A DNA stretch of 17,743 bases from Candidatus Micrarchaeota archaeon. GTDB lineage: Archaea > Micrarchaeota > Micrarchaeia > Anstonellales > Anstonellaceae. The stretch spans positions 3,268-21,010 of the forward strand of contig DUFS01000083.1 in assembly GCA_013331805.1 (NCBI GenBank), written 5' to 3'. Under the pieces are notes generated by a model. The model worked only from the letters and a program-made list of their open reading frames with translations. It was not told the DNA's origin and ran no database searches. A program made the position numbers and the translations under genes. Shown piece by piece: positions 208 to 14,589 of the stretch; position 1 is the stretch's first letter, and each line of letters opens with the position of its first letter.

Positions 208-1095
208 ATGGCTTTAAAATTAAGCAAATCCGAGATAAGGGCGCTGCGCCAGATATGCCGACAGGACGGCACGGTTAGTGGACTTGCTGCCAAGCTGGGG
301 GCAAAGGAGAGTTTCATGTCCAGGGTTCTTCGTAGCCTGGGGGAAAAAGGTCTTGTTGGGGTAAAAAAGGACGGCGTGAAAAAAACAGTGCAGCTCTCGG
401 TTGCCTCGCACGCACAGAATTTCAAGCTGCTTTCGGACTCAAGACCGGATGCCAAAATAGAGGGCTGGCTTTCCGGATTCGCAATGGACATATTGGTGGT
501 TTCCGAAGATGGCGCTGAAACCAACCTCATACTGGAGGAAACGGGCTGCACTGCCGCCACCCTTTACAAAACTTTGAAATCGCTGCTTTCTGCGGGCGTG
601 CTCCTCTGGAAAAATGGAAGGGTGGAAATAACAGACGGGCTCTTGAAGAAATTCGTTGCCTCATATGCGGACAACATCCAGCTCATTGCCCAGCGCAATG
701 CGAAGGGGTTCAACACTTCAATCCGTATCAGGAAAAACGTTGTCCTTCGGACGGACGCAAAAAACGTTCCGCCATATTTCACGCAAACCGGGCTCTCCGC
801 GCTTGCAAAAAATGGGCTTGAAGCCATGCTGACGTCCTACGATGACTTTTACTTCAACCTTGACGGGCAGAAAAGGGAACTTAGCCCGGAGGAGTCTTTC
901 ATCCATGCCCTGCTTTTGACCACGCTCCAGCAGCATCAGGACATGCCGGTCCTTGCCATCTTCTTTGCCAAGAACAAGCGCAGGCTTGACTTGGGAGCAA
1001 TTAAAAAACTTGCAAAAAAATACATGGTGGAGGGCGCTCTTGAAGAAATCAGGCGGGAAACCGAGTTCCACGAAAAGATGAAGGGATTTGAATGA
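208..1095 (+). CDS. Winged-HTH (MarR/ArsR-like, two HTH segments) protein; putative antitoxin/regulator of the downstream nucleotidyltransferase
   Basis: TVSGLAAKLGAKESFMSRVLRSLGEKGLV and a second HTH-like segment (TAATLYKTLKSLLSAGVL); ATGA overlap with the next gene. Confidence 0.75.
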   Translation: MALKLSKSEIRALRQICRQDGTVSGLAAKLGAKESFMSRVLRSLGEKGLVGVKKDGVKKTVQLSVASHAQNFKLLSDSRPDAKIEGWLSGFAMDILVVSEDGAETNLILEETGCTAATLYKTLKSLLSAGVLLWKNGRVEITDGLLKKFVASYADNIQLIAQRNAKGFNTSIRIRKNVVLRTDAKNVPPYFTQTGLSALAKNGLEAMLTSYDDFYFNLDGQKRELSPEESFIHALLLTTLQQHQDMPVLAIFFAKNKRRLDLGAIKKLAKKYMVEGALEEIRRETEFHEKMKGFE

Positions 1096-1835
1096 GAAGG
1101 AGCTTCACCAAAGGCGATCTGGAAGCGGCGTTCCAAAAGGTCGGCGCAATCCTGCAAAAGCCGCTGACCGTTTACCTTCTGGGCGGCAGCGCAATGTGCT
1201 TCCGCGGGCAGAAGGCAGGCACAAAGGACCTTGACCTGGTTTTCACGAGCAGGGAGGATTTCCAGGATTTTGTTTCCGCAATAGGGAAAAACGGTTTTAC
1301 GGAGGCAAAACAGGTCGAAACCGAATACGCTGACATGATGGCTGCTGGGATTTGGCGCAACAAGGAAGATTTTAGGATGGACCTGTTCGTGAACACAGTC
1401 TGCCGCGCGCTGAGCATTTCTGGAAAAATGGTGCAGAGATCTGAGCTTCTCGGCGAATACGGCAAGCTGGTTGTAAGGCTCGTTTCAAACGAGGATGTAA
1501 TCCTCTTCAAAGGGATAACCGAGCGGCCCGATGATGCGAACGACATAGCGGCAATAATACTCCGCTCCGACATAAACTGGAACGTCGTCTTGGACGAATG
1601 CATTGCCCAGAGCAAAACAACCTCCTGGTACGGGCTTCTTGCAGACAAATTCGCAGATATTGAGGAAACGCAAGGGATAACCGTCCCCATAACGGGCAAA
1701 ATACTGGAACTTGACCGGCAGGTGCTGGTAAAAAACGCGCTTGAAATGCGGCTGAAGAAAGGCATGAGCAGGAAGGACGCGATAAGCGATCTCTCGAAGA
1801 AGGGATTTTCCAAAAAGGAGCTTGAGGGATTGTAA
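1092..1835 (+). CDS. DUF6036/AbiEii-like Pol-beta-superfamily nucleotidyltransferase (putative type IV TA/Abi toxin)
   Basis: VYLLGGSAM...TKDLDLV motif, FRMDLF, and C-terminal K..TERPDDANDI (R-x-x-D-x-x-D) motif. Confidence 0.75.
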   Translation: MRRSFTKGDLEAAFQKVGAILQKPLTVYLLGGSAMCFRGQKAGTKDLDLVFTSREDFQDFVSAIGKNGFTEAKQVETEYADMMAAGIWRNKEDFRMDLFVNTVCRALSISGKMVQRSELLGEYGKLVVRLVSNEDVILFKGITERPDDANDIAAIILRSDINWNVVLDECIAQSKTTSWYGLLADKFADIEETQGITVPITGKILELDRQVLVKNALEMRLKKGMSRKDAISDLSKKGFSKKELEGL

Positions 1836-1912
1836 ATGAAACGTCTCTATCTGTCATTTGCCCACTTGCAAAATGGAGGGATGGCAAGCAAAAAAAGTAT
1901 GATTGTGGAAGT

Positions 1913-2320
1913 TCATGGCGTGAAAAGTTCATTGTTTAGTATTTCTCGCATGCAGGCCGTAGCGCTTCCAGAAAATACCCGTATCCATTCACCAGTATAT
2001 CTCTTATAAGAAAGTTCAAGCCTGCCTTCTCTGCCAAGCACACTGACATACATAAGGCGCGCGAAGCATGTTTCAAAATAAGGCGAAATTGCACGTGGGG
2101 AAGGGCAGGCGTATTTTGAACACAAGTAAAAACAGCCCGCATGCCATTTGGAGTGAATTTCCACCAGGTAGTTGAATTCCCTGTTTTTTGGAGGCTTCTT
2201 GATGTATTTTTTGTGCAGAGCTTCCACGAGCGCCGCCGCTTCAAGTTCAACACGCGCTCGGAGTGTTTCAGGCAGTTTCAGCCTCTTTGGCATGAAAACC
2301 CATGCGCCTCCCCTCGCCAT
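1913..2320 (-). CDS. Conserved-looking hypothetical protein (135 aa)
   Basis: ATG at 2320 preceded by GGAGG. Motifs FNYLVEIHSKW, YACPSP, FARLMY and YKRYTGEW resemble a widespread uncharacterised family (recalled, not searched). Confidence 0.6.
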   Translation of the reverse strand: MARGGAWVFMPKRLKLPETLRARVELEAAALVEALHKKYIKKPPKNREFNYLVEIHSKWHAGCFYLCSKYACPSPRAISPYFETCFARLMYVSVLGREGRLELSYKRYTGEWIRVFSGSATACMREILNNELFTP

Positions 2321-2384
2321 GCAAAGCCTCCAAAAGACGTTGAGACGCAAGAGATATAACGCTTTGGCGCTACACAATGGCGGT

Positions 2385-2939
2385 GTGGTCCTGAGAAAAA
2401 TCTGGCTCATTGTGAAAAATGATTTCAGTTATGGCAGTGCTGGTGTTGCAGTCTTCAGCATCTCAGAGGCTGCGTGGAAAAACTGCGAGGAATTAGCACG
2501 CAAAGAAATAGACTCGCTCAAGGCTTGGGAAGAATTTGAAAGCTCTGCAGTATTCAAGGTGAGGAAACTCAAATCCGAAGACTTCCCTATTCACGGTTTC
2601 GGTGTCTATGTGAAGGAGAAGCAAAGGTTGGAGCGGTTGGCGGCATCTTTCTGCATCAAGGAGCTGCCGTTTGATGAGCTCCCAAAGCCCTCAAAATTTG
2701 CAACAATAATGGAGAAGCCAGTGTTCAGCACGGGCTTGGACAAAGACTCGTTTGTGGCGTCTGTGAGAGAATATGCCCACCTGCCAGGCAGCGGAATTGC
2801 CGATGCGGATGCTTTTTGTGCAAAGATTCTTGAAAAATGGAAGACACTTCGTGAAGAAGGAGATAACATATCTGCTGACGGCTTTCTTGTAATGAGGGAG
2901 AGCTACAGGCTGGATGTTCGCCCCATCAAAACGCAGTGA
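2385..2939 (+). CDS. Hypothetical protein (~184 aa; start uncertain)
   Basis: 3' part of ORF 2172..2939. GTG at 2385 follows a TATA-like ATATAA (~2354-2359) and avoids overlap with the divergent gene; the gene abuts the next ATG. Confidence 0.55.
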   Translation: MVLRKIWLIVKNDFSYGSAGVAVFSISEAAWKNCEELARKEIDSLKAWEEFESSAVFKVRKLKSEDFPIHGFGVYVKEKQRLERLAASFCIKELPFDELPKPSKFATIMEKPVFSTGLDKDSFVASVREYAHLPGSGIADADAFCAKILEKWKTLREEGDNISADGFLVMRESYRLDVRPIKTQ

Positions 2940-2943
2940 TGCC

Positions 2944-3669
2944 ATGAAACTGAAAATAAGCTTTGATGACATTGCGCCTGCCTTTGAGCAGGCATCTGAT
3001 TCTTCTCTTTACATGTTCATCGATACAAAAGAGAACCGCATAGTGGTTCTTTCCGATAATGAGGCTACCGATGCCGATTTTGAGATAATGAAACGACCGA
3101 GATATGTTGCATTGCCCAGAAGGGATTCGAAAGATGATTACTTCCGGATGGAATCATTCACATACGTGATGAGCTGCTGTGATCTTGAGCTTGTGCAGAA
3201 ATTCCACAAGGCATTAAGGCAAAACAAGCCATTCGGGAATTTCAGGGATTTGCTCTCGCAACACTTGGAGATTGAGCAACAATGGTTTGCATTTGAGAAG
3301 AAAGCCGCAAGGAATGACGCAATTGATTGGCTCTGCGAGGAAGGCATTGAGCTTGAGGGCCAGCGGCTGATTCCGGAAATTGAAATCCGCGAGCTGGATG
3401 AAGAAAGTGTCAAAAAGCTGCCTGATGAGATACGGGTTCTGAAGGCGCGAGCCTGCCTGCAATGCCACAACGAAAGTGGACTAGAAGCAAGGCTTTTTGC
3501 AGCGAGCACTCAGATTGTCAATGCAATGATAGAAAACGAGATATATCGCATATTGAAGGACAAATACTCGTTGTCCGAGTACGCGGGCTGGTCGGATGAC
3601 AGCCAGACTGTGCTGGTTGCTGCCAAGTGCCCAAAATGCGGCAGCGAAGAGATATTTTTTGATTACTGA
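2944..3669 (+). CDS. UPF0158-family protein with C-terminal Zn-ribbon-like domain
   Basis: LKISFDDI...YVALP...YFRMESF...KPFGNFRDLL...QWFAFE...DWLCEEGI matches the UPF0158 pattern; CLQC and CPKC pairs follow. Confidence 0.7.
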   Translation: MKLKISFDDIAPAFEQASDSSLYMFIDTKENRIVVLSDNEATDADFEIMKRPRYVALPRRDSKDDYFRMESFTYVMSCCDLELVQKFHKALRQNKPFGNFRDLLSQHLEIEQQWFAFEKKAARNDAIDWLCEEGIELEGQRLIPEIEIRELDEESVKKLPDEIRVLKARACLQCHNESGLEARLFAASTQIVNAMIENEIYRILKDKYSLSEYAGWSDDSQTVLVAAKCPKCGSEEIFFDY

Positions 3670-3678
3670 TGTGATTTC

Positions 3679-6324
3679 TTGAAGGAACAAAAGACATTTC
3701 TGGACTGCCCGCATTGCGGTGCGAGCGTGCGGGATGTAAATTTCAGCGCGCACCTTGCAAAGGCGCACGGGCAGGCGCCGTCCGATGCCGACCGCGCAGC
3801 GCAGAGCGGCAATCCGGAACAGGCTCGGAAGGAAGGTCTTCACAATCTGGCTGGTCTTGCGCACAGTACGCGCAAAAGGAAGGCTGGCGTTGAACAAGCA
3901 TTCAGACGCGACGAGAAGGGAGCATTGCGCCCGCAGGAACATTACGACTATGGAAAGATGTTAAGATACTGGTTCGTATGCAAGGAATGCAAGAGAAAGA
4001 GCCAGCTGCCAACCGGGTTCATATCTGTAGAAGACGAAAAGGGGGAACGGTTGAAATTCATGCTTGAAGTAATGTGCAAGCACTGCGGCTCACACAATGT
4101 TGAAATGGAACAATGGGAACGCTACGGAGTGCTTATGCGTCTGACTTTGGGCGTCAACCTAACGGATGCGCAGGAGGCCGCCCCCGTAGTGGCGGGTGCA
4201 GCGGTTGGCGGCGTTGAAATGGATGCCGCAAAAGCCATCCATTATTACGAAAAGGCACTTGCCAGCAAAGATGCGGATGATTGGGAGAAATGGACAAGAT
4301 ATGCAAACCTTCTCAGAGTCACCAACAGGTACGACGATGCAATAGCCGCATTTCGCAAGGCAGGGGAGCTTAAGCGTTCGACAGTGGCGCCTCCGCTTGG
4401 GCTCGGGAAGATTTTTTTCCACCGCTGGAAAATCTATGGGATGAAGGGCGCGCGGCAGGAGGCAAAGGAGAACCTTGCGCGCGCCCTGATTGCCAACAAG
4501 GCAAACGGAGACCTTGCAACCATCCACAATGAAAGGTGGGAAGTTGAACAAGGGATATGCGAGTTGCTCGATAAAACCGGCACTGTGGGAACTGGCATTG
4601 CGCTCGCCTCTACGCGAGATATTGAAAAGGAATTTGCCAAAGGAATAAAGAATGGCACAGGGGGCGAAATAAGCGTCAGAATGTCCTCAATGCAGGAAGT
4701 GGCAGAAGCAGCATCCAACGCAGCTGCTATGCTGTTGGTTGAAAAGCCTCAGACGGACAAGGCGGAATTGATCCGCGCGCTGGAATCGCTTGGGAATGAC
4801 CTTGATTCCAATGACGCTCTTGCTTCATATTTCCGCGACCACGCCAAAGTTGCATTGATGCAGAAAATCAAGAATGGCAGGGTGTATAACGTGGCAGAGC
4901 TGCGTGGCGGCATGGCATTGGCTGCAGGGCTGCTCAAGAAAGAGCCGAAATATTTTGCAGCACTGCACGTGGATGCCGAGGAGAACAGACGCAAGATTTC
5001 CAGAAAAGCGCCATCAGTAAGGGAAAAAACAGACAACCCTGATGCAAACACTGAAGGAACACAGAAAATGAATGCGGTGCGGCTGTCCAATGGCAAAATA
5101 AGGCTGGATTTCGGAAATGAACTGGATTCCATAGCAGACGAGTGCCCCTGCCCGACCTGCATGTTCCGCTCTACGCCGCGCTACAAGAGCATCTTAGAGC
5201 AATATTCGCAGAACCATTCATTGCCTGCAGAAAACTGCCAGCTTTCGGATTACATCAGCTATATCTCAGATCTTGCATATTTTGCAAACTACGTGTATAC
5301 GGAAAACGGCACCAGCATGGCTGAGCAGAACCAAAAATACAGCCTTGCCACATTCGACTTTCGCATGCTGCTAAGGTTTGAAGATGATGATTACTACCGC
5401 TTGAAGGAAAAGGCGCAGGAACCCGACGCCAAGTGTATAAAGGAGCTTGGCAAGTTGGCTCATGCATACCCGCGCGACGAAACAGTGCTGGATTTGTACG
5501 CCGAGGTGCTCATACACGATTTCCAGTTCCATGCGGCAGAAAAAGTGCTGGACAAGATAGATGTGCTGCACCCAGACAAAAGGGCGCACGACTGCATAAA
5601 CGCCCGCGCACAGCTTATGATACAGCGCGATTTCGACTTTGAGCGCGCGCTTCGGATTGCGGATGAGGGACTGCTTCTTTACCCAAAATCGTTCGACCTG
5701 AACATCACCAAAGCAGCCGTGCTTTCGTGGAGCAATGACAAGAACGGCGCGGCAACCTACCGCGAGGCAGCGCGTGCCATAGACTCCAAGAGGTACGAGA
5801 AATTCATGAAGGAACACTGGATTGAGGATGCGCCAGAAGAGATGAAGACGCTGCGCTTTATGCACACATGCAACGAAATAATGATGCTGCATGATGGGAA
5901 TGCTGAAGCACAGAAGCTTCTTGAGAGGGCGGTGCGCTTCTGCCCAAGAGGCAATCGCGACGCCGAAATGCTGGTACGAAGGATGGGCTTTGACATTGCG
6001 CTCTCGCAAAACGACCTTGCGCGCGCAGCCGCACTGGTTGCTGAAATGCAGCTTGCTGGAGTTGAGGAGAACTGCCTGTATTGCGAAGGGGCGCTTGCCT
6101 ACCGGCAAGGCGGCTGGAAAACTGCGCTCTCAAAGGCGCGCGAAGCGCAGGAAATGGCTTCAAAAAAGAAGGCGAAATATTTCCTTCCAGCCCTCTATCT
6201 CATCGAGGAAGTTTCCCGCGCGCAGGGTGACGCGGAAGGACTGAAAGATGCGCGCGAAAAAATCGCTGCTGCGCGCGCCTACCTTGCCACTATTGCACCG
6301 CCAAAATTTGGCCGGCAGCGATAA
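3679..6324 (+). CDS. Large multidomain Zn-finger/TPR-repeat protein (881 aa)
   Basis: CPHC..H...H, CKEC/CKHC, TPR-like helices (YANLLRVTNRYDDAIAAFRKA; LYAEVLIHDFQFHAAEKVLDK; YCEGALAYRQGGWKTAL), and an internal CPCPTC. Confidence 0.75.
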   Translation: MKEQKTFLDCPHCGASVRDVNFSAHLAKAHGQAPSDADRAAQSGNPEQARKEGLHNLAGLAHSTRKRKAGVEQAFRRDEKGALRPQEHYDYGKMLRYWFVCKECKRKSQLPTGFISVEDEKGERLKFMLEVMCKHCGSHNVEMEQWERYGVLMRLTLGVNLTDAQEAAPVVAGAAVGGVEMDAAKAIHYYEKALASKDADDWEKWTRYANLLRVTNRYDDAIAAFRKAGELKRSTVAPPLGLGKIFFHRWKIYGMKGARQEAKENLARALIANKANGDLATIHNERWEVEQGICELLDKTGTVGTGIALASTRDIEKEFAKGIKNGTGGEISVRMSSMQEVAEAASNAAAMLLVEKPQTDKAELIRALESLGNDLDSNDALASYFRDHAKVALMQKIKNGRVYNVAELRGGMALAAGLLKKEPKYFAALHVDAEENRRKISRKAPSVREKTDNPDANTEGTQKMNAVRLSNGKIRLDFGNELDSIADECPCPTCMFRSTPRYKSILEQYSQNHSLPAENCQLSDYISYISDLAYFANYVYTENGTSMAEQNQKYSLATFDFRMLLRFEDDDYYRLKEKAQEPDAKCIKELGKLAHAYPRDETVLDLYAEVLIHDFQFHAAEKVLDKIDVLHPDKRAHDCINARAQLMIQRDFDFERALRIADEGLLLYPKSFDLNITKAAVLSWSNDKNGAATYREAARAIDSKRYEKFMKEHWIEDAPEEMKTLRFMHTCNEIMMLHDGNAEAQKLLERAVRFCPRGNRDAEMLVRRMGFDIALSQNDLARAAALVAEMQLAGVEENCLYCEGALAYRQGGWKTALSKAREAQEMASKKKAKYFLPALYLIEEVSRAQGDAEGLKDAREKIAAARAYLATIAPPKFGRQR

Positions 6325-6471
6325 TTGCTGCATTCGCTTTGATATAACACGGCTCCGCAAAATGCTGTGCGCTTCATCCAAAATCTAAATTACACAACAT
6401 TGCCTGCGATGCTGAGAGTCTCATTTCAAAACGCCATTTTCAAATCAGAAAATCCTTCTTTCTCCTCGATG

Positions 6472-6509
6472 ACCCCGGGACAGAACGTACCAGTCTACGC
6501 CACGACCCC
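6472..6509 (-). tRNA. tRNA-Pro-like 5' half only (positions ~1-38); split-tRNA half, att remnant or pseudogene
   Basis: GGGGTCG-TG-GCGT-AGACTGGT-ACGT-T-CTGTC-CC-GGG-GT: acceptor strand, U8, A14G15, G18G19 and a paired D-stem. No T-arm or CGACCCC was found downstream. Position 33 is C rather than U. Confidence 0.55.
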
Positions 6510-6586
6510 GCGCTTCCACACTGGGTTATGCAGGCGCTGGTTTATGAGCACCTGCGAGGGGTTGTGGAACGACCCCTGCTTTGCGC
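6510..6586 (-). ncRNA. Structured ~77-nt leader RNA (two hairpins plus a potential pseudoknot) abutting the tRNA half
   Basis: Closing GCGC/GCGC, AGGGGT/ACCCCT and GCAGGTGCT/AGCGCCTGC stems; loop TTCCACA is complementary to downstream TGTGGAA. Confidence 0.45.
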
Positions 6587-6607
6587 TACCGAGTTATGGC
6601 TGGCATC

Positions 6608-6617
6608 TTTTTATATA
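6608..6617 (-). promoter_or_regulatory. Archaeal TATA box (TATATAAAAA) for the leader/tRNA-half transcript
   Basis: Lies just after the DUF475 stop codon and predicts a start site near 6587, where the structured leader begins. Confidence 0.55.
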
Positions 6618-6621
6618 GGTT

Positions 6622-7557
6622 TTAGGCGGCGGTTCCTCGCACTTTTATGTGCTCGTGCGATTTCCAGAAGAAGTAGCCTATGCAGCCGAATGTCAGCACC
6701 GGGGAGACATAGGCTGGAATGTGGGCGCCGAATGCATCAAGGAGCATTATTGCCCCGAGAAGGAGGATGGAATACATCGCCCCGTTCTTGAGGTATATGT
6801 ATTTTTTCACGGTCTCAATGTTCCTGATGGTCAGCTCGCGGACCACCAATGCGCCAAGCCCGTTGCCAAGGAGTATGAGGGGGACCGACAGCGTGAATGC
6901 GAACGCCCCGATCACCCCGTCCACCGAGAATGTGCTGTCTATGACCTCAAGGTAGAGTATCTTGCTCCAGTCGCCCATATTGGCCGAGCCCCCGTGCAGA
7001 AGCTGCTGCTCGTGCTGCTCGGCATTCTGCTTGAAGCCATGCGTTATGAAAAAGGCTGTTGAGCCCACCACTGCCCCGAATGCCATGAGCTGGTTCCGTC
7101 CCATCGCAAACCACACGATAAGCGTGAGGAGTATGGACACGACTGCATAGAACCACACTCCCTGCTTTTGGAAGAAGCGCTCCGGGTGCAAGCCGAAGGA
7201 TTTTGACTCCAGGAACAGCCAGTGGAAGAACAGGAAAACCAGGAAAACCCCGCCCCCCGCAAGCAGAATGGGGGAGCTTTGCTCCACAGCCGCAGCAACG
7301 GCAGGGTCGGAGCTGAAAGTCGCGAAAAGCGCTCCATCGGGCCCGAGAGAGGGGGTTGCAGCCCATACGATAAGGAGGGGGAGTGCGCCGCGCACCACAA
7401 ATACGGCGATTACGATCCCGAATGTGAGGAACCAGCGCCGCGCGCGCTCACTCATTTTGGATAGCACCTCGGCGTTTATCACTGCGTTGTCTATGCTGAT
7501 TATTGACTCAAAGAGCACAAGCCCGAGCACGGTGAGCAGCATTCCAAACAGATCCAT
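6622..7557 (-). CDS. DUF475 / TerC-like integral membrane protein
   Basis: LFESIISIDNAVINA and LYLEVIDSTFSVDGVIGAFA motifs, many TM helices; TATA-like TTTATTTAA about 25 nt upstream (leaderless). Confidence 0.9.
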   Translation of the reverse strand: MDLFGMLLTVLGLVLFESIISIDNAVINAEVLSKMSERARRWFLTFGIVIAVFVVRGALPLLIVWAATPSLGPDGALFATFSSDPAVAAAVEQSSPILLAGGGVFLVFLFFHWLFLESKSFGLHPERFFQKQGVWFYAVVSILLTLIVWFAMGRNQLMAFGAVVGSTAFFITHGFKQNAEQHEQQLLHGGSANMGDWSKILYLEVIDSTFSVDGVIGAFAFTLSVPLILLGNGLGALVVRELTIRNIETVKKYIYLKNGAMYSILLLGAIMLLDAFGAHIPAYVSPVLTFGCIGYFFWKSHEHIKVRGTAA

Positions 7558-10058: not shown

Positions 10059-10553
10059 TCAGAGTCTGTCCTTTGCATTGCCGCCGTCCCCGCTTATCGG
10101 CTTTCCGTTGATTTTGACGCTGTTTTCAAACGGGAGCTTCACGTAATAGACCCCTTCCTCGTCCTTGAGCACCACCGGATTTTCAGACAGCGCCTTGATG
10201 TCCACGAGGAAGACGCCCTCCTTGATTATTTTGATATTCTCCACGTCCTCCGAAGTGAATGTGGTGCGGGCGAAGTATGATTCGGGTGCTTTGCCGCTGC
10301 TTTCGGCCTTTTCAGCTGCCGATTCTTTTATTGGAGCAGCCTTGCTTTTCTCCTCACCCATAATTTGCTGCGGCTGTTCCTGCGCCTGCGGCACCTGCAA
10401 GGGCCCTTGGGCTGTCTTGGGAGGGGGGTCCTCAGCTGCCTTTTCCTCAACAGACTCCTTGTTGAAGACAAAAACCTTGGAGCCGCAGGGGCAGCCGTTG
10501 TCTATTTCCTCAAGCGAGGCCGCAGCCCTGCCGCATCTGACGCAATTGTGCAT
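10059..10553 (-). CDS. oapC: OapC/ArvC (DUF2072) Zn-ribbon protein
   Basis: MHNCVRCG...GCPCGSKVFVF, low-complexity linker, VENIKIIKEGVFLVDIKAL and EEGVYYVKL; GGTGA RBS before the ATG at 10553; adjacent to oapA. Confidence 0.85.
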   Translation of the reverse strand: MHNCVRCGRAAASLEEIDNGCPCGSKVFVFNKESVEEKAAEDPPPKTAQGPLQVPQAQEQPQQIMGEEKSKAAPIKESAAEKAESSGKAPESYFARTTFTSEDVENIKIIKEGVFLVDIKALSENPVVLKDEEGVYYVKLPFENSVKINGKPISGDGGNAKDRL

Positions 10554-13746: not shown

Positions 13747-14589
13747 TCACTTCCCGCCGCGAATGCGGTAGCAGAGGATTGCGTTATGCATCAGGGCGGC
13801 AACCGTCATGGGCCCCACCCCCCCTGGCACTGGCGTGATGAGCGAGGCTTTTTCCTTCACAGAATCAAAGTCAACGTCTCCGATGAGTTTTTCGCCTTCC
13901 CTGCTTGTGCCGGCATCTATGACAACCGCACCTTGCTTCACCATGCCTGCCTTGAGGAGCTTGGGCTTGCCTACTGCTACGCAGACAATGTCCGCCTGCG
14001 CAGACAATGAGCCGATGTCAGGGGTTTTGCTGTGGCATATGCTCACTGTGCAGTTCTCGTTCAATAGAAGAAGAGCAAGCGGCTTTCCCACTATCCTGCT
14101 CCTGCCGATCACCACCGCGTGCTTTCCTGCCAAAGCAACCCCGCTTTGCTTGAGCAGGTGCAGGATGCCCAGTGGGGTGCAGGGGATTATTTTCCCCTGG
14201 TTGAACGCGAGCTTTCCGAAATTCTCCGGATGGAACCCGTCAGCGTCCTTTTCAGGCGCAACCTGCGCTAGCACCTTATCCTCGTCTATTGCTTGAGGCA
14301 TGGGAACCTGGACCAGTATTGCGTCCACCTTGCCCTCCTTGTTCAGCTTTTGGACCGCCCCTATCACTTCGCTTTGGGTTGCAGATGCAGGCAGCCGCAC
14401 GTCCTTGGATACAATGCCCGTGAATTTGCAGGCTTCGATTTTTTTCCTGACATAGACTTCTGATGCGGGGTCATTTCCCACCAGGACTATTGCAAGGCAT
14501 GGTGGGCGCGAAAGGGAGGATACCTCCTGCGCAGCCTTTTCAAGGAGCGCATCCGCCATTTTTTTCCCGTCGATTATTTTTGCAGGCAT
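13747..14589 (-). CDS. folD: Bifunctional methylene-THF dehydrogenase/cyclohydrolase
   Basis: IIDGK, YVRKK, KDADGFH, PCTP, GRSRIVGKP and TPVPGGVGPMT. Confidence 0.97.
   Translation of the reverse strand: MPAKIIDGKKMADALLEKAAQEVSSLSRPPCLAIVLVGNDPASEVYVRKKIEACKFTGIVSKDVRLPASATQSEVIGAVQKLNKEGKVDAILVQVPMPQAIDEDKVLAQVAPEKDADGFHPENFGKLAFNQGKIIPCTPLGILHLLKQSGVALAGKHAVVIGRSRIVGKPLALLLLNENCTVSICHSKTPDIGSLSAQADIVCVAVGKPKLLKAGMVKQGAVVIDAGTSREGEKLIGDVDFDSVKEKASLITPVPGGVGPMTVAALMHNAILCYRIRGGK

Follow-up and report, generated by a model that had tools for sequence, protein, structure and literature searches.

A tRNA half-like sequence in a Micrarchaeota genome as a probable chimera of two tRNA gene fragments

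Described split and fragmented tRNA genes and the present locus

Split tRNA genes, reportedly described for Nanoarchaeum equitans by Randau in 2005 and for Caldivirga maquilingensis by Fujishima in 2009, are one system that the locus studied here resembles. Like them, it consists of a lone 5' portion broken between positions 37 and 38, with a promoter and a trailer that is not tRNA, and it belongs to an organism with a splicing endonuclease and many unusual introns. A second system is that of tRNA gene fragments associated with mobile DNA. The part of PMC9897764 that we draw on describes the tRNA gene fragments of integrated elements as pervasive in archaea, and in the portion of the Islander paper used here (PMC4383910), tRNA gene fragments mark the ends of islands. 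A third is ARMAN-2 (Candidatus Micrarchaeum acidiphilum), for whose tRNA genes PMC3239211, in the part consulted, describes unusual introns; according to the legend of its Fig. 1C, the pre-tRNA-Pro(GGG) has two T-loop introns, at 53/54 and 59/60.

Our analysis concerned a window of 17,743 nt, which corresponds to positions 3268-21010 of contig C56 in G000, a 1.19-Mb, 83-contig, 91.5%-complete assembly of a Micrarchaeota archaeon. Within the window, 38 nt at 6472..6509 on the minus strand were first taken for the 5' half of a tRNA-Pro. Read from 6509 to 6472, they run GGGGTCG-TG-GCGT-AGACTGGT-ACGT-T-CTGTC-CC-GGG-G-T, and directly 3' of them stands CATCGAGGAG / CATCGAGGAGAAAG. In register, the stretch corresponds to a tRNA 5' half that breaks off between positions 37 and 38. 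The acceptor 5' strand, the D-arm, and the 5' anticodon strand up to GGG-G-T are all present as the original prediction claimed, and so are a C at position 33 and a short D-loop, which has 8 nt. Because its first 13 nt, GGGGTCGTGGCGT, occur six times in the 1.19-Mb genome, against about 0.04 occurrences expected by arithmetic, the stretch is far from a chance resemblance. ARAGORN, run with introns allowed on both the window and the whole genome, called no tRNA at the locus, and Rfam gave no match there, either at the gathering score or at E<=10 across 6100-6700. On the minus strand, the 147 nt that lead to the stop of an 881-aa open reading frame (6324) contain no anticodon-stem 3' strand, no T-arm, and no acceptor 3' strand, which bears out the reported absence of a GACAG, T-arm, and CGACCCC continuation downstream.

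If the stretch were half of a split tRNA, the mature molecule would start GGGGUCGUGGCGUAGACUGG and carry the anticodon GGG, and the partner would comprise a leader able to pair with CAUCGAGGAG and, after it, GACAG, a T-arm, and CGACCCCA. The original prediction proposed to look for such a 3' half and leader in the genome, and neither was found in the 91.5%-complete assembly. Specifically, no 3' half was present at any of the CGACCCC sites in G000. Strict T-arms gave 27 matches in the genome, none of them compatible with the GGGGTCG acceptor strand except that of tRNA-Trp, and among 358 acceptor-compatible 3' ends behind a 5-bp hairpin, only the one of tRNA-Trp was tRNA-like. The tRNA-Trp 3' half (CGATCCC-A) was considered as a shared partner and rejected, because CTGTC and its anticodon stem (CCTGC) are unable to pair. 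A genome-wide search for leader motifs of the CTCGATG type yielded no partner leader; a scan for complements of the trailer that tolerated G-U pairs returned only the opposite strand of the locus itself and low-complexity runs; and no bulge-helix-bulge at a junction with a partner was found for the 38-nt stretch. The genome does contain one tRNA_int_endo match, at C69:15867-16100 (E=4e-18), representing a splicing endonuclease, which would have to cut relaxed bulge-helix-bulge motifs to serve a split tRNA. The literature that we searched held no paper joining "split tRNA" and "Micrarchaeota," and nothing on point for an integrase or integration at a Micrarchaeota tRNA gene.

Another difference from the split genes of N. 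equitans and C. maquilingensis is an intact gene with the same anticodon. In a scan of the genome for loops of the form YU-GGG-RN that close on a 5-bp stem and have a fitting acceptor no more than 400 nt away, a single convincing gene for tRNA-Pro(GGG) emerged, on the minus strand of contig C11 (14174..14022). Its 5' part reads GGGGTCA-TG-GGGT-AACCTGGCTA-GCCT-T-CCAGC-TTGGGGT-GCTGG-AGAT-CCGAG, and its 3' part [33 nt]-TTCAAAT-[46 nt]-CTCGG-TGACCCC-A. When the 33- and 46-nt inserts that flank the T-loop are removed, ARAGORN recognizes a 74-nt tRNA-Pro(GGG), which in mature form would start GGGGUCAUGGGGU; on the unspliced genome, the same program reports no intact tRNA-Pro(GGG). As far as the figure legend describes the ARMAN-2 gene, the C11 gene has the same architecture of two T-loop introns. 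Used as a DNA query, it finds a match in 22 of the 23 genus genomes, including the other three that carry the composite described below (G003, G020, and G022). With this gene in the genome, the isoacceptor of the supposed half is already encoded. The count of intact tRNA-Pro genes that the original prediction called for therefore speaks against it. The prediction had also named, as an observation that would tell against it, an intact tRNA elsewhere with the same 5' sequence together with the lack of a free 3' half, and this was found in part.

Detection is a general difficulty in this genome. Its tRNA-Pro(TGG), at C14:5-143, has a 65-nt intron and is miscalled by ARAGORN as Ser(TGA); a tRNA-Pro(CGG) start lies at the end of contig C59; and Rfam tRNA matches number only 23, compared with 32-40 in five relatives. 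In G022, ARAGORN calls both tRNA-Pro(TGG) and tRNA-Pro(CGG) as intact. In many G000 tRNA genes, the D-arm or T-loop is interrupted by introns that the detection programs cannot cope with, in agreement with the unusual introns described in the cited part of the ARMAN-2 paper, so that a "missing" isoacceptor is not evidence for a split gene. The C11 tRNA-Pro(GGG) would decode CCU and CCC, and the intact tRNA-Trp on contig C71 would serve tryptophan.

Origins of the two tRNA pieces

The first part of the 38-nt stretch (6488..6509, minus strand) is a 5' stub of tRNA-Trp type, made up of the acceptor 5' strand, U8/G9, the D-stem 5' strand, and the D-loop. Its first 14 nt agree at 14/14 positions with the start of the intact tRNA-Trp gene at C71:10440; the D-loop that follows is close to that of tRNA-Trp (AGACTGGTA vs. 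AACTTGGTA). The neighboring gene, for a TerC/DUF475 membrane protein (6622..7557, minus strand; Pfam E=2e-46), is a flank conserved in some relatives. Orthologues are present in 6 of the 23 genus genomes, G000 among them, with 89-90% identity in G006, G011, and G020 and 67% in G010 and G013. Behind TerC in G006, and on its strand, come a related copy of the 67-nt upstream insert described below and then an intact tRNA-Trp, directly after which lies a displaced tRNA-Trp 3' half. In G011, the island-end sequence TTCTGGTTTTTTGAC (...CGAGATGAATTTCTGGTTTTTTGAC) comes directly after TerC and leads into a Fic-type island, the same one that follows the composite in G020. The DNA past TerC hence differs between relatives (G006 has tRNA-Trp there, G011 a Fic island), and a boundary between conserved and variable sequence runs through this point. 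Such synteny points to a tRNA-Trp as the gene that would once have stood at the TerC locus, and it implies that everything past the junction is island DNA. As a fallback, the original prediction had offered a tRNA broken by the accessory block, or a pseudogene. In essence this was right, except that the resident gene appears to have been tRNA-Trp and not tRNA-Pro.

The leader between TerC and the stub is also of tRNA type. A conserved archaeal tRNA-type promoter, AAACCTATATAAAAAGATG, occupies 6603..6621 on the minus strand. Its TATA box (TATATAAA, 6617..6610) does exist upstream as predicted, but it stands 108 nt before G1 and not about 25-40 nt. Related promoters, with 85-93% identity over 28-53 nt, precede intact tRNA-Trp genes in G015 and G007 and the composite in G003, and among G000 copies of the promoter 15-mer (<=2 mismatches) this is the only one that adjoins a tRNA-like start. 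Between the TATA box and G1 lie a D-arm-like scrap and a 67-nt insert. The scrap, TAACTCGGTAGCGC (6583..6596, minus strand), was recognized by its similarity to the tRNA-Trp D-arm; it agrees at 13/14 positions with the D-loop and D-stem 3' strand and is also found upstream of the intact tRNA-Trp of G015. The insert (6510..6576, minus strand), identified through copies in relatives, opens with a duplicate of the tRNA start, GGGGTCGT, continues with a near-palindromic copy, CCACAACCCC, and further contains a 7-bp hairpin, GCAGGTG/CGCCTGC, and the element TGTGGAA. Copies with 80-84% identity stand before GGGGTCGTGGCGT in G005, G024, and G019, and the one in G024 precedes an intact tRNA-Trp. No Rfam family matched the insert at the gathering score or at E<=10. 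A permuted tRNA, with its 3' half upstream, was considered and rejected: the 67 nt upstream of the stretch are a separate conserved insert that also stands before intact tRNA-Trp genes.

Next to the stub is a 10-nt linker, CGTTCTGTCC (6478..6487, minus strand). By eye it can be read as the D-stem 3' strand plus the anticodon-stem 5' strand. It aligns with neither tRNA-Trp nor the real tRNA-Pro(GGG), and among the nine composite variants compared below it is kept as C[GAT]T[TA][TCA]TGT[CT]C.

Beyond the linker, the sequence is the 3' end of a tRNA-Pro(GGG) gene in inverted orientation. This fragment, found by BLAST against the C11 gene, occupies 6439..6477 on the plus strand and consists of the T-loop TTCAAAT (6439-6445), a 19-nt insert where the second intron sits (6446-6464), the T-stem 3' strand CTCGA with the acceptor 3' strand TGACCCC (6465-6476), and a G at the discriminator position (6477). 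The matching blocks are TTCAAATC (8/8) and CTCGATGACCCC (11/12), and the T-loop is at the right distance for a short second intron. Set beside the ARMAN-2 gene, as far as the figure legend describes it, the fragment retains the T-loop, a short insert at the second intron, and the last exon; the difference is that the ARMAN-2 gene is functional, whereas the window holds an inverted 3' piece only. Both pieces of the composite are nearly identical to the ends of intact tRNA genes in the same genome (14/14 for the Trp 5' end; 11/12 in the window and 13/14 in the C71 copy for the Pro(GGG) 3' end).

The inverted fragment overlaps the 38-nt stretch by 6 nt, and GGG-G-T is the complement of 6472-6476. 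Reverse-complemented, GGGG-TCATCGAG, which had been read as anticodon plus trailer, gives the 3' end of tRNA-Pro(GGG) (CTCGA-TGACCCC). Since the trailer has this origin, the four G's taken for "GGG + G37" are the complement of C69-C72. The supposed nucleotide 33 is likewise the complement of the discriminator (A or G), and it is T in eight of the nine variants and C in the window. The GGG anticodon would accordingly be an artefact of fusion, as a complement of acceptor C69-C72, and the tRNA-Pro identity kept in the fallback of the original prediction would fall with it.

Other copies agree with this reading of the trailer. The reverse complement of the composite segment GGGG[TC]CATCGAGA is TCTCGATG[AG]CCCC, and CTCGATG[AG]CCCC is present on the opposite strand in 10 of 10 distinct composite places. 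Real tRNA-Pro(GGG) genes end AATCTCGA-TGGCCCC-A in most relatives and AATCTCGG-TGACCCC-A in G000. At the 20 of 23 loci that could be resolved, the combinations are CTCGA+TGGCCCC (13 loci), CTCGG+TGACCCC (4), CTCGG+TGGCCCC (1), and CTCGA+AGGCCCC (2). Furthermore, the second copy in G022 (GGGGCCATCGAGA), which is the lone GGGGCC copy, agrees at 14/14 positions with that genome's own tRNA-Pro 3' end, TCTCGATGGCCCCA.

Recurrence and conservation of the composite

The junction GGGGTCATCGAG occurs at three sites in G000, namely, in the window, at C71:14313, and at C59:22068. At the C59 site, the same GGGGTCATCGAGATAGA end is joined to a decayed 32-nt stub of tRNA-Pro(CGG), located 2 kb before the start of a presumably intact tRNA-Pro(CGG) gene at the contig end. 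When we scanned 176 genomes of the order for the junction, 16 places in 14 genomes matched. Six of these places represent the composite unit proper and are confined to 4 of the 23 genus genomes (G000, G003, G020, and G022); the other 10 are unrelated and mostly coding sequence. A looser pattern applied to 42 family genomes added a second copy in G022, GGGGGCA...GGGGCCATCGAGAAAG, and a metagenome scan contributed three further composite variants. A scan of a genome collection gave mostly chance bacterial matches, the real ones being limited to three Micrarchaeota/Micrarchaeia records. Viral contigs yielded six matches to the junction pattern, all in unrelated sequence and none with a tRNA stub.

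For comparison we used nine distinct Micrarchaeia variants with a Trp-type start and counted the C59 copy separately. These variants share a plan of GGGG[TG]C[GA]TGGCGT, eight variable nucleotides, AC[GAT]T[TA][TCA]TGT[CT]C[TC], and GGGG[TC]CATCGAG, with a composite junction of the form ...TGTCC(Y)GGGGTCATCGAGA.... In copies other than that of the window, the plan continues with some 6-8 nt of variable spacer, then a motif rich in TT (TT[CT][CT]GA in five of the eight non-window variants), a run of 5-6 T, and GAC. In G003 and in the second copy of G022, a promoter, AAACCTAT[AT]TAAA, lies about 41 nt upstream. Peculiar to the window copy are the C at position 33, an interrupted T-run (GATTTGAAAATGG), and the 67 nt inserted between the leader and G1.

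Conservation along the unit is uneven. The 13-mer, the junction, and TTYTGATTTTTTGAC are nearly invariant across the nine variants, and the D-loop and a 6-nt spacer vary freely. The D-loop G18G19 is present in one variant and missing in the other eight; the 11-24 pair is kept in four and broken in five. Folding of the half together with its trailer gave a consensus of -7.75 kcal/mol and no compensatory pairs. On the basis of these alignments, the composite shows no tRNA-type constraint. The uneven pattern suggests instead some other constraint (on an att or protein-binding site, or on an RNA) or repeated gene conversion, rather than free decay.

The genes around the composite change from place to place. 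In the window, the accessory block (208..6324, plus strand; Pfam) comprises a TrmB/MarR-like regulator, a DUF6036 nucleotidyltransferase, a 255-aa open reading frame without a family, UPF0158, and the 881-aa protein, which has only faint TPR matches. Homologues of the block were absent from the orthologous composite loci, which share no protein synteny. The neighbors of the C71 composite are AbiEi/AbiEii, HNH, and SWIM; those elsewhere include Fic in G020, AAA_14 in G003, and AbiEii-like genes upstream in G003 and G022. At three places, an intact tRNA-Trp lies downstream of the composite on the same strand, at a distance of 3.9 kb on C71 (composite at 14346, tRNA-Trp at 10440), 1.25 kb in G020, and about 10.5 kb in G022.

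Explanations for the composite and the wider pattern of tRNA ends

The feature is, in our view, probably not half of a working tRNA but a non-coding chimera left over from tRNA genes where TerC meets the accessory island. The ancestral order at the locus would have been TerC, promoter, and tRNA-Trp, of which the promoter, the leader with its 67-nt insert, and the first 14-22 nt of the tRNA would be left in G000. Through the 10-nt linker, this stub would have become joined to an island terminus that consists of an inverted tRNA-Pro(GGG) 3' end, reaching from T-loop to discriminator. GGGG on the stub strand would then be the complement of CCCC in the acceptor and, with the linker, would mimic an anticodon arm with anticodon GGG. 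The junction may have arisen by site-specific or microhomology-guided recombination of a mobile island, with the tRNA-Pro(GGG) 3' end as the attachment sequence. In this respect, reverse-complementing the core of the Pro 3' end gives TGGGGTCAT, a sequence similar both to GGGGTCGT of the tRNA-Trp start and to TTGGGGT of the Pro anticodon loop. The composite unit could subsequently have spread or persisted as an island end in several Micrarchaeia, and it is now presumably inert.

As a chimeric remnant, the composite is an atypical member of a class that is well documented, that of tRNA gene fragments at the ends of islands. Like them, it includes a piece identical to an intact tRNA end and sits where conserved DNA gives way to a variable block with toxin-antitoxin or defence cargo; in the C71, G020, and G022 cases, an intact tRNA-Trp of the same strand follows a few kb to about 10 kb farther on. 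It differs in that pieces of two tRNAs (Trp 5' and Pro-GGG 3') are fused head to head and that the stub is a 5' one with a promoter and not the usual 3' fragment.

Several observations speak against a simple integration scar. No Pfam integrase domain was found among the island's open reading frames (in G000, PF00589 matched twice, on C60 and on C64 only), so the recombination mechanism is one that we infer. A fragment displaced by canonical integration is usually in direct orientation and adjoins its own tRNA gene, whereas here the Pro fragment is inverted and the intact tRNA-Pro is on another contig. The attL/attR anatomy is also incomplete in the contig of the window, unlike on C71, in G020, and in G022, where a direct-repeat partner adjoins the intact tRNA-Trp. 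A second 13-mer is present on the far side of the block, at C56:2896, outside the window, and it is followed by no intact or recognizable tRNA. Finally, three conserved segments amid free variation suggest that there is room for a recombination site or an RNA.

Of the alternatives, the one that survives best takes the first 33 nt as the genuine 5' half of an extra tRNA-Pro(GGG)-like gene, which would make the Pro identity historical. In that case, the attachment core of a mobile element (reverse complement TGGGGT) would have recombined with the anticodon-loop sequence YTGGGGT and interrupted the gene precisely there. Some integrases prefer the anticodon loop of tRNA genes. The loop YU-GGG-GU is that of the real tRNA-Pro(GGG), TTGGGGT, and differs from the tRNA-Pro genes with TGG and CGG, which have GA at 37-38; moreover, the element end on C59 follows a tRNA-Pro(CGG) stub of about the same length (32 nt), which suggests insertion at 33/34. 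Nevertheless, we think a broken paralog of this kind unlikely. Positions 1-22 match tRNA-Trp, at 14/14 and then in the D-loop, and are unlike the real tRNA-Pro(GGG) (GGGGTCATGGGGTAACCTGGCTA). The syntenic locus in G006 holds tRNA-Trp, and the bases of the putative D-stem and anticodon stem vary without compensatory change.

It is also conceivable, in our judgment at long odds, that the composite is a functional unit, either as the attachment site or end of an island or as an RNA of about 65-140 nt whose 3' part is antisense to tRNA-Pro(GGG), the complementarity being perfect over the last 14-15 nt of that tRNA. The three strongly conserved segments between variable ones in the nine variants would be expected of such a unit, and orthologues combine a conserved promoter 41 nt upstream with an oligo-T run after the unit. 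In addition, the unit recurs beside genes for AbiEii-type and other nucleotidyltransferases, Fic, and HEPN, and in G011 the element end abuts TerC and is accompanied by the Fic island that G020 also has. Against function, the T-run of the window copy is interrupted and its promoter displaced by the 67-nt insert, the orientation relative to the toxin genes is inconsistent, the unit was not found on viral contigs, and no more than 4 of the 23 genus genomes carry it. We give little credence to the proposal that the composite serves as a working module of an undescribed Micrarchaeia island family, whether as a tRNA-gene attachment site or as a small RNA that pairs with or mimics the tRNA-Pro(GGG) 3' end, although such an RNA could be viewed in the context of the tRNA-targeting toxins of the islands (AbiEii-type nucleotidyltransferases, HEPN, and Fic). 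The central claim of the original prediction, a 5' half of tRNA-Pro(GGG) that is trans-spliced at a bulge-helix-bulge to a separate 3' half, has become extremely improbable: it can draw on the tRNA register of the acceptor, D-arm, and anticodon arm, the upstream promoter and the oligo-T run of orthologues, recurrence in four genus genomes, a splicing endonuclease alongside many non-canonical introns, and the failure of ARAGORN to see an intact tRNA-Pro(GGG), but four of the tests that define a split tRNA went against it, with no partner half in the 91.5%-complete assembly, a trailer whose only complement is its own opposite strand and which is explained as an inverted tRNA-Pro 3' end, a two-intron intact gene matched throughout most of the genus, and core nucleotides (G18G19, the 11-24 pair, and, in the window, position 33) that are not conserved.

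The main value of identifying the feature as a probable chimeric remnant is a corrected annotation, in which a candidate DPANN split tRNA gives way to a chimera of two tRNA gene fragments. Two T-loop introns hide the true tRNA-Pro(GGG) from both ARAGORN and Rfam, and in intron-rich Micrarchaeia the combination of an orphan half and a missing isoacceptor can come purely from such detection failure. Looking beyond the window, the ends of tRNA genes in this genus appear to be recombination hot spots, with short direct or inverted copies of tRNA termini lying beside toxin-antitoxin and defence islands. This litter of tRNA ends may merit a systematic look for the mobile elements responsible. On contig C33, a 13-nt tRNA-Pro(TGG) start lies 1.6 kb upstream of the intact gene. 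Separately, a truncated TnpA of the IS200 type is present at C56:2935-3231, outside the window.

A conserved insert ahead of the tRNA stub

Between the promoter/leader and the tRNA start of the probable chimeric remnant lies a conserved insert of 67 nt (window 6510-6576, minus strand). Its four elements are a second copy of the tRNA start (GGGGTCGT), a near-palindromic version of that copy (CCACAACCCC), a hairpin of 7 bp (GCAGGTG/CGCCTGC), and the sequence TGTGGAA. Copies with 80-84% identity are found ahead of GGGGTCGTGGCGT in three relatives (genomes G005, G024, and G019), where the G024 copy precedes an intact tRNA-Trp. In addition, a related version occurs in a fourth relative, G006. The insert in the window, which was assigned to no Rfam family, could represent either a miniature mobile insert that duplicated its target or a structured leader.

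Composites, apparent cassettes, and island gene pairs

Another family of composites is represented at position 2896 of the source contig C56, which is 372 nt before the start of the window and thus outside it, and at locus L002 of G005. Its members follow a common plan, with GGGGTCGTGGCGT followed by approximately 9 nt, AAAAGTTA, 3 nt, and TTTAGGG. On C56, a truncated IS200-type TnpA (C56:2935-3231) and the hairpin CCACGGGCTTTAGCCCGTGG lie 39 nt ahead of the composite, and HEPN and Pol-beta nucleotidyltransferase genes come after it. The island in the window and the one on contig C71 of the same genome each carry a regulator paired with a nucleotidyltransferase: a TrmB-like protein with DUF6036 in the window (208-1835), and AbiEi with AbiEii on C71 (10785-12353). 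These pairs are probably type IV toxin-antitoxin modules.

At locus L007 of relative G007 (contig C84), two tandem modules, each running from GGGGTCGTGGCGT through GATTTTGCGTTCTGATGGAGGG to a lipoprotein-like ORF, are followed by a promoter and an intact tRNA-Trp. The AAACCTATATAAAAAGATG promoter precedes the second module and the tRNA-Trp, and was not seen ahead of the first module. The modules resemble gene cassettes that were introduced where the tRNA begins and that are possibly expressed from the tRNA promoter. Separately, a displaced copy of the tRNA-Trp 3' half (ACCTGCATGTTAGGGTTCAG...CAAATCCCTACGATTCC), with a T-loop insert of its own, lies directly behind the intact tRNA-Trp at locus L271 (G006:C14).

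Interrupted tRNA genes and the tRNA-Pro loci

Only 23 Rfam tRNA matches were recovered from the source genome, compared to 32-40 in five relatives. Its tRNA genes include some with D-arm introns (C50:1706 and C54:7154) and others with introns behind the T-loop (C11:15778 and C83:888), the latter two sharing a near-identical insert. The real tRNA-Pro(GGG) gene (C11 14022-14174, minus strand; locus L227/L228), whose T-loop is flanked by inserts of 33 and 46 nt, was detected by neither ARAGORN nor the Rfam tRNA model. Just upstream of it, a 14-nt direct repeat (GTTCATGGGGTCAT) surrounds an insert of ~31 nt that has inverted ends and contains NN. Among relatives (loci L236-L241; G011, G020, G006, G022, and G017), CCATGGCCCCATAGG is located ~60 nt upstream of the tRNA-Pro(GGG) gene and is a direct copy of that gene's 3' end, ATGGCCCCATA, so that repeats of the 3' terminus stand on both sides of the gene.

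In the source genome, ARAGORN mistakes the tRNA-Pro(TGG) gene (C14 5-143 and C33 1-19), which is interrupted at 37/38 by an intron of 65 nt, for tRNA-Ser(TGA). C33 and C14 overlap at their ends within this gene, so it is probably here that the two contigs are joined. The gene's start recurs as a 13-nt copy at C33:1622, 1.6 kb upstream.
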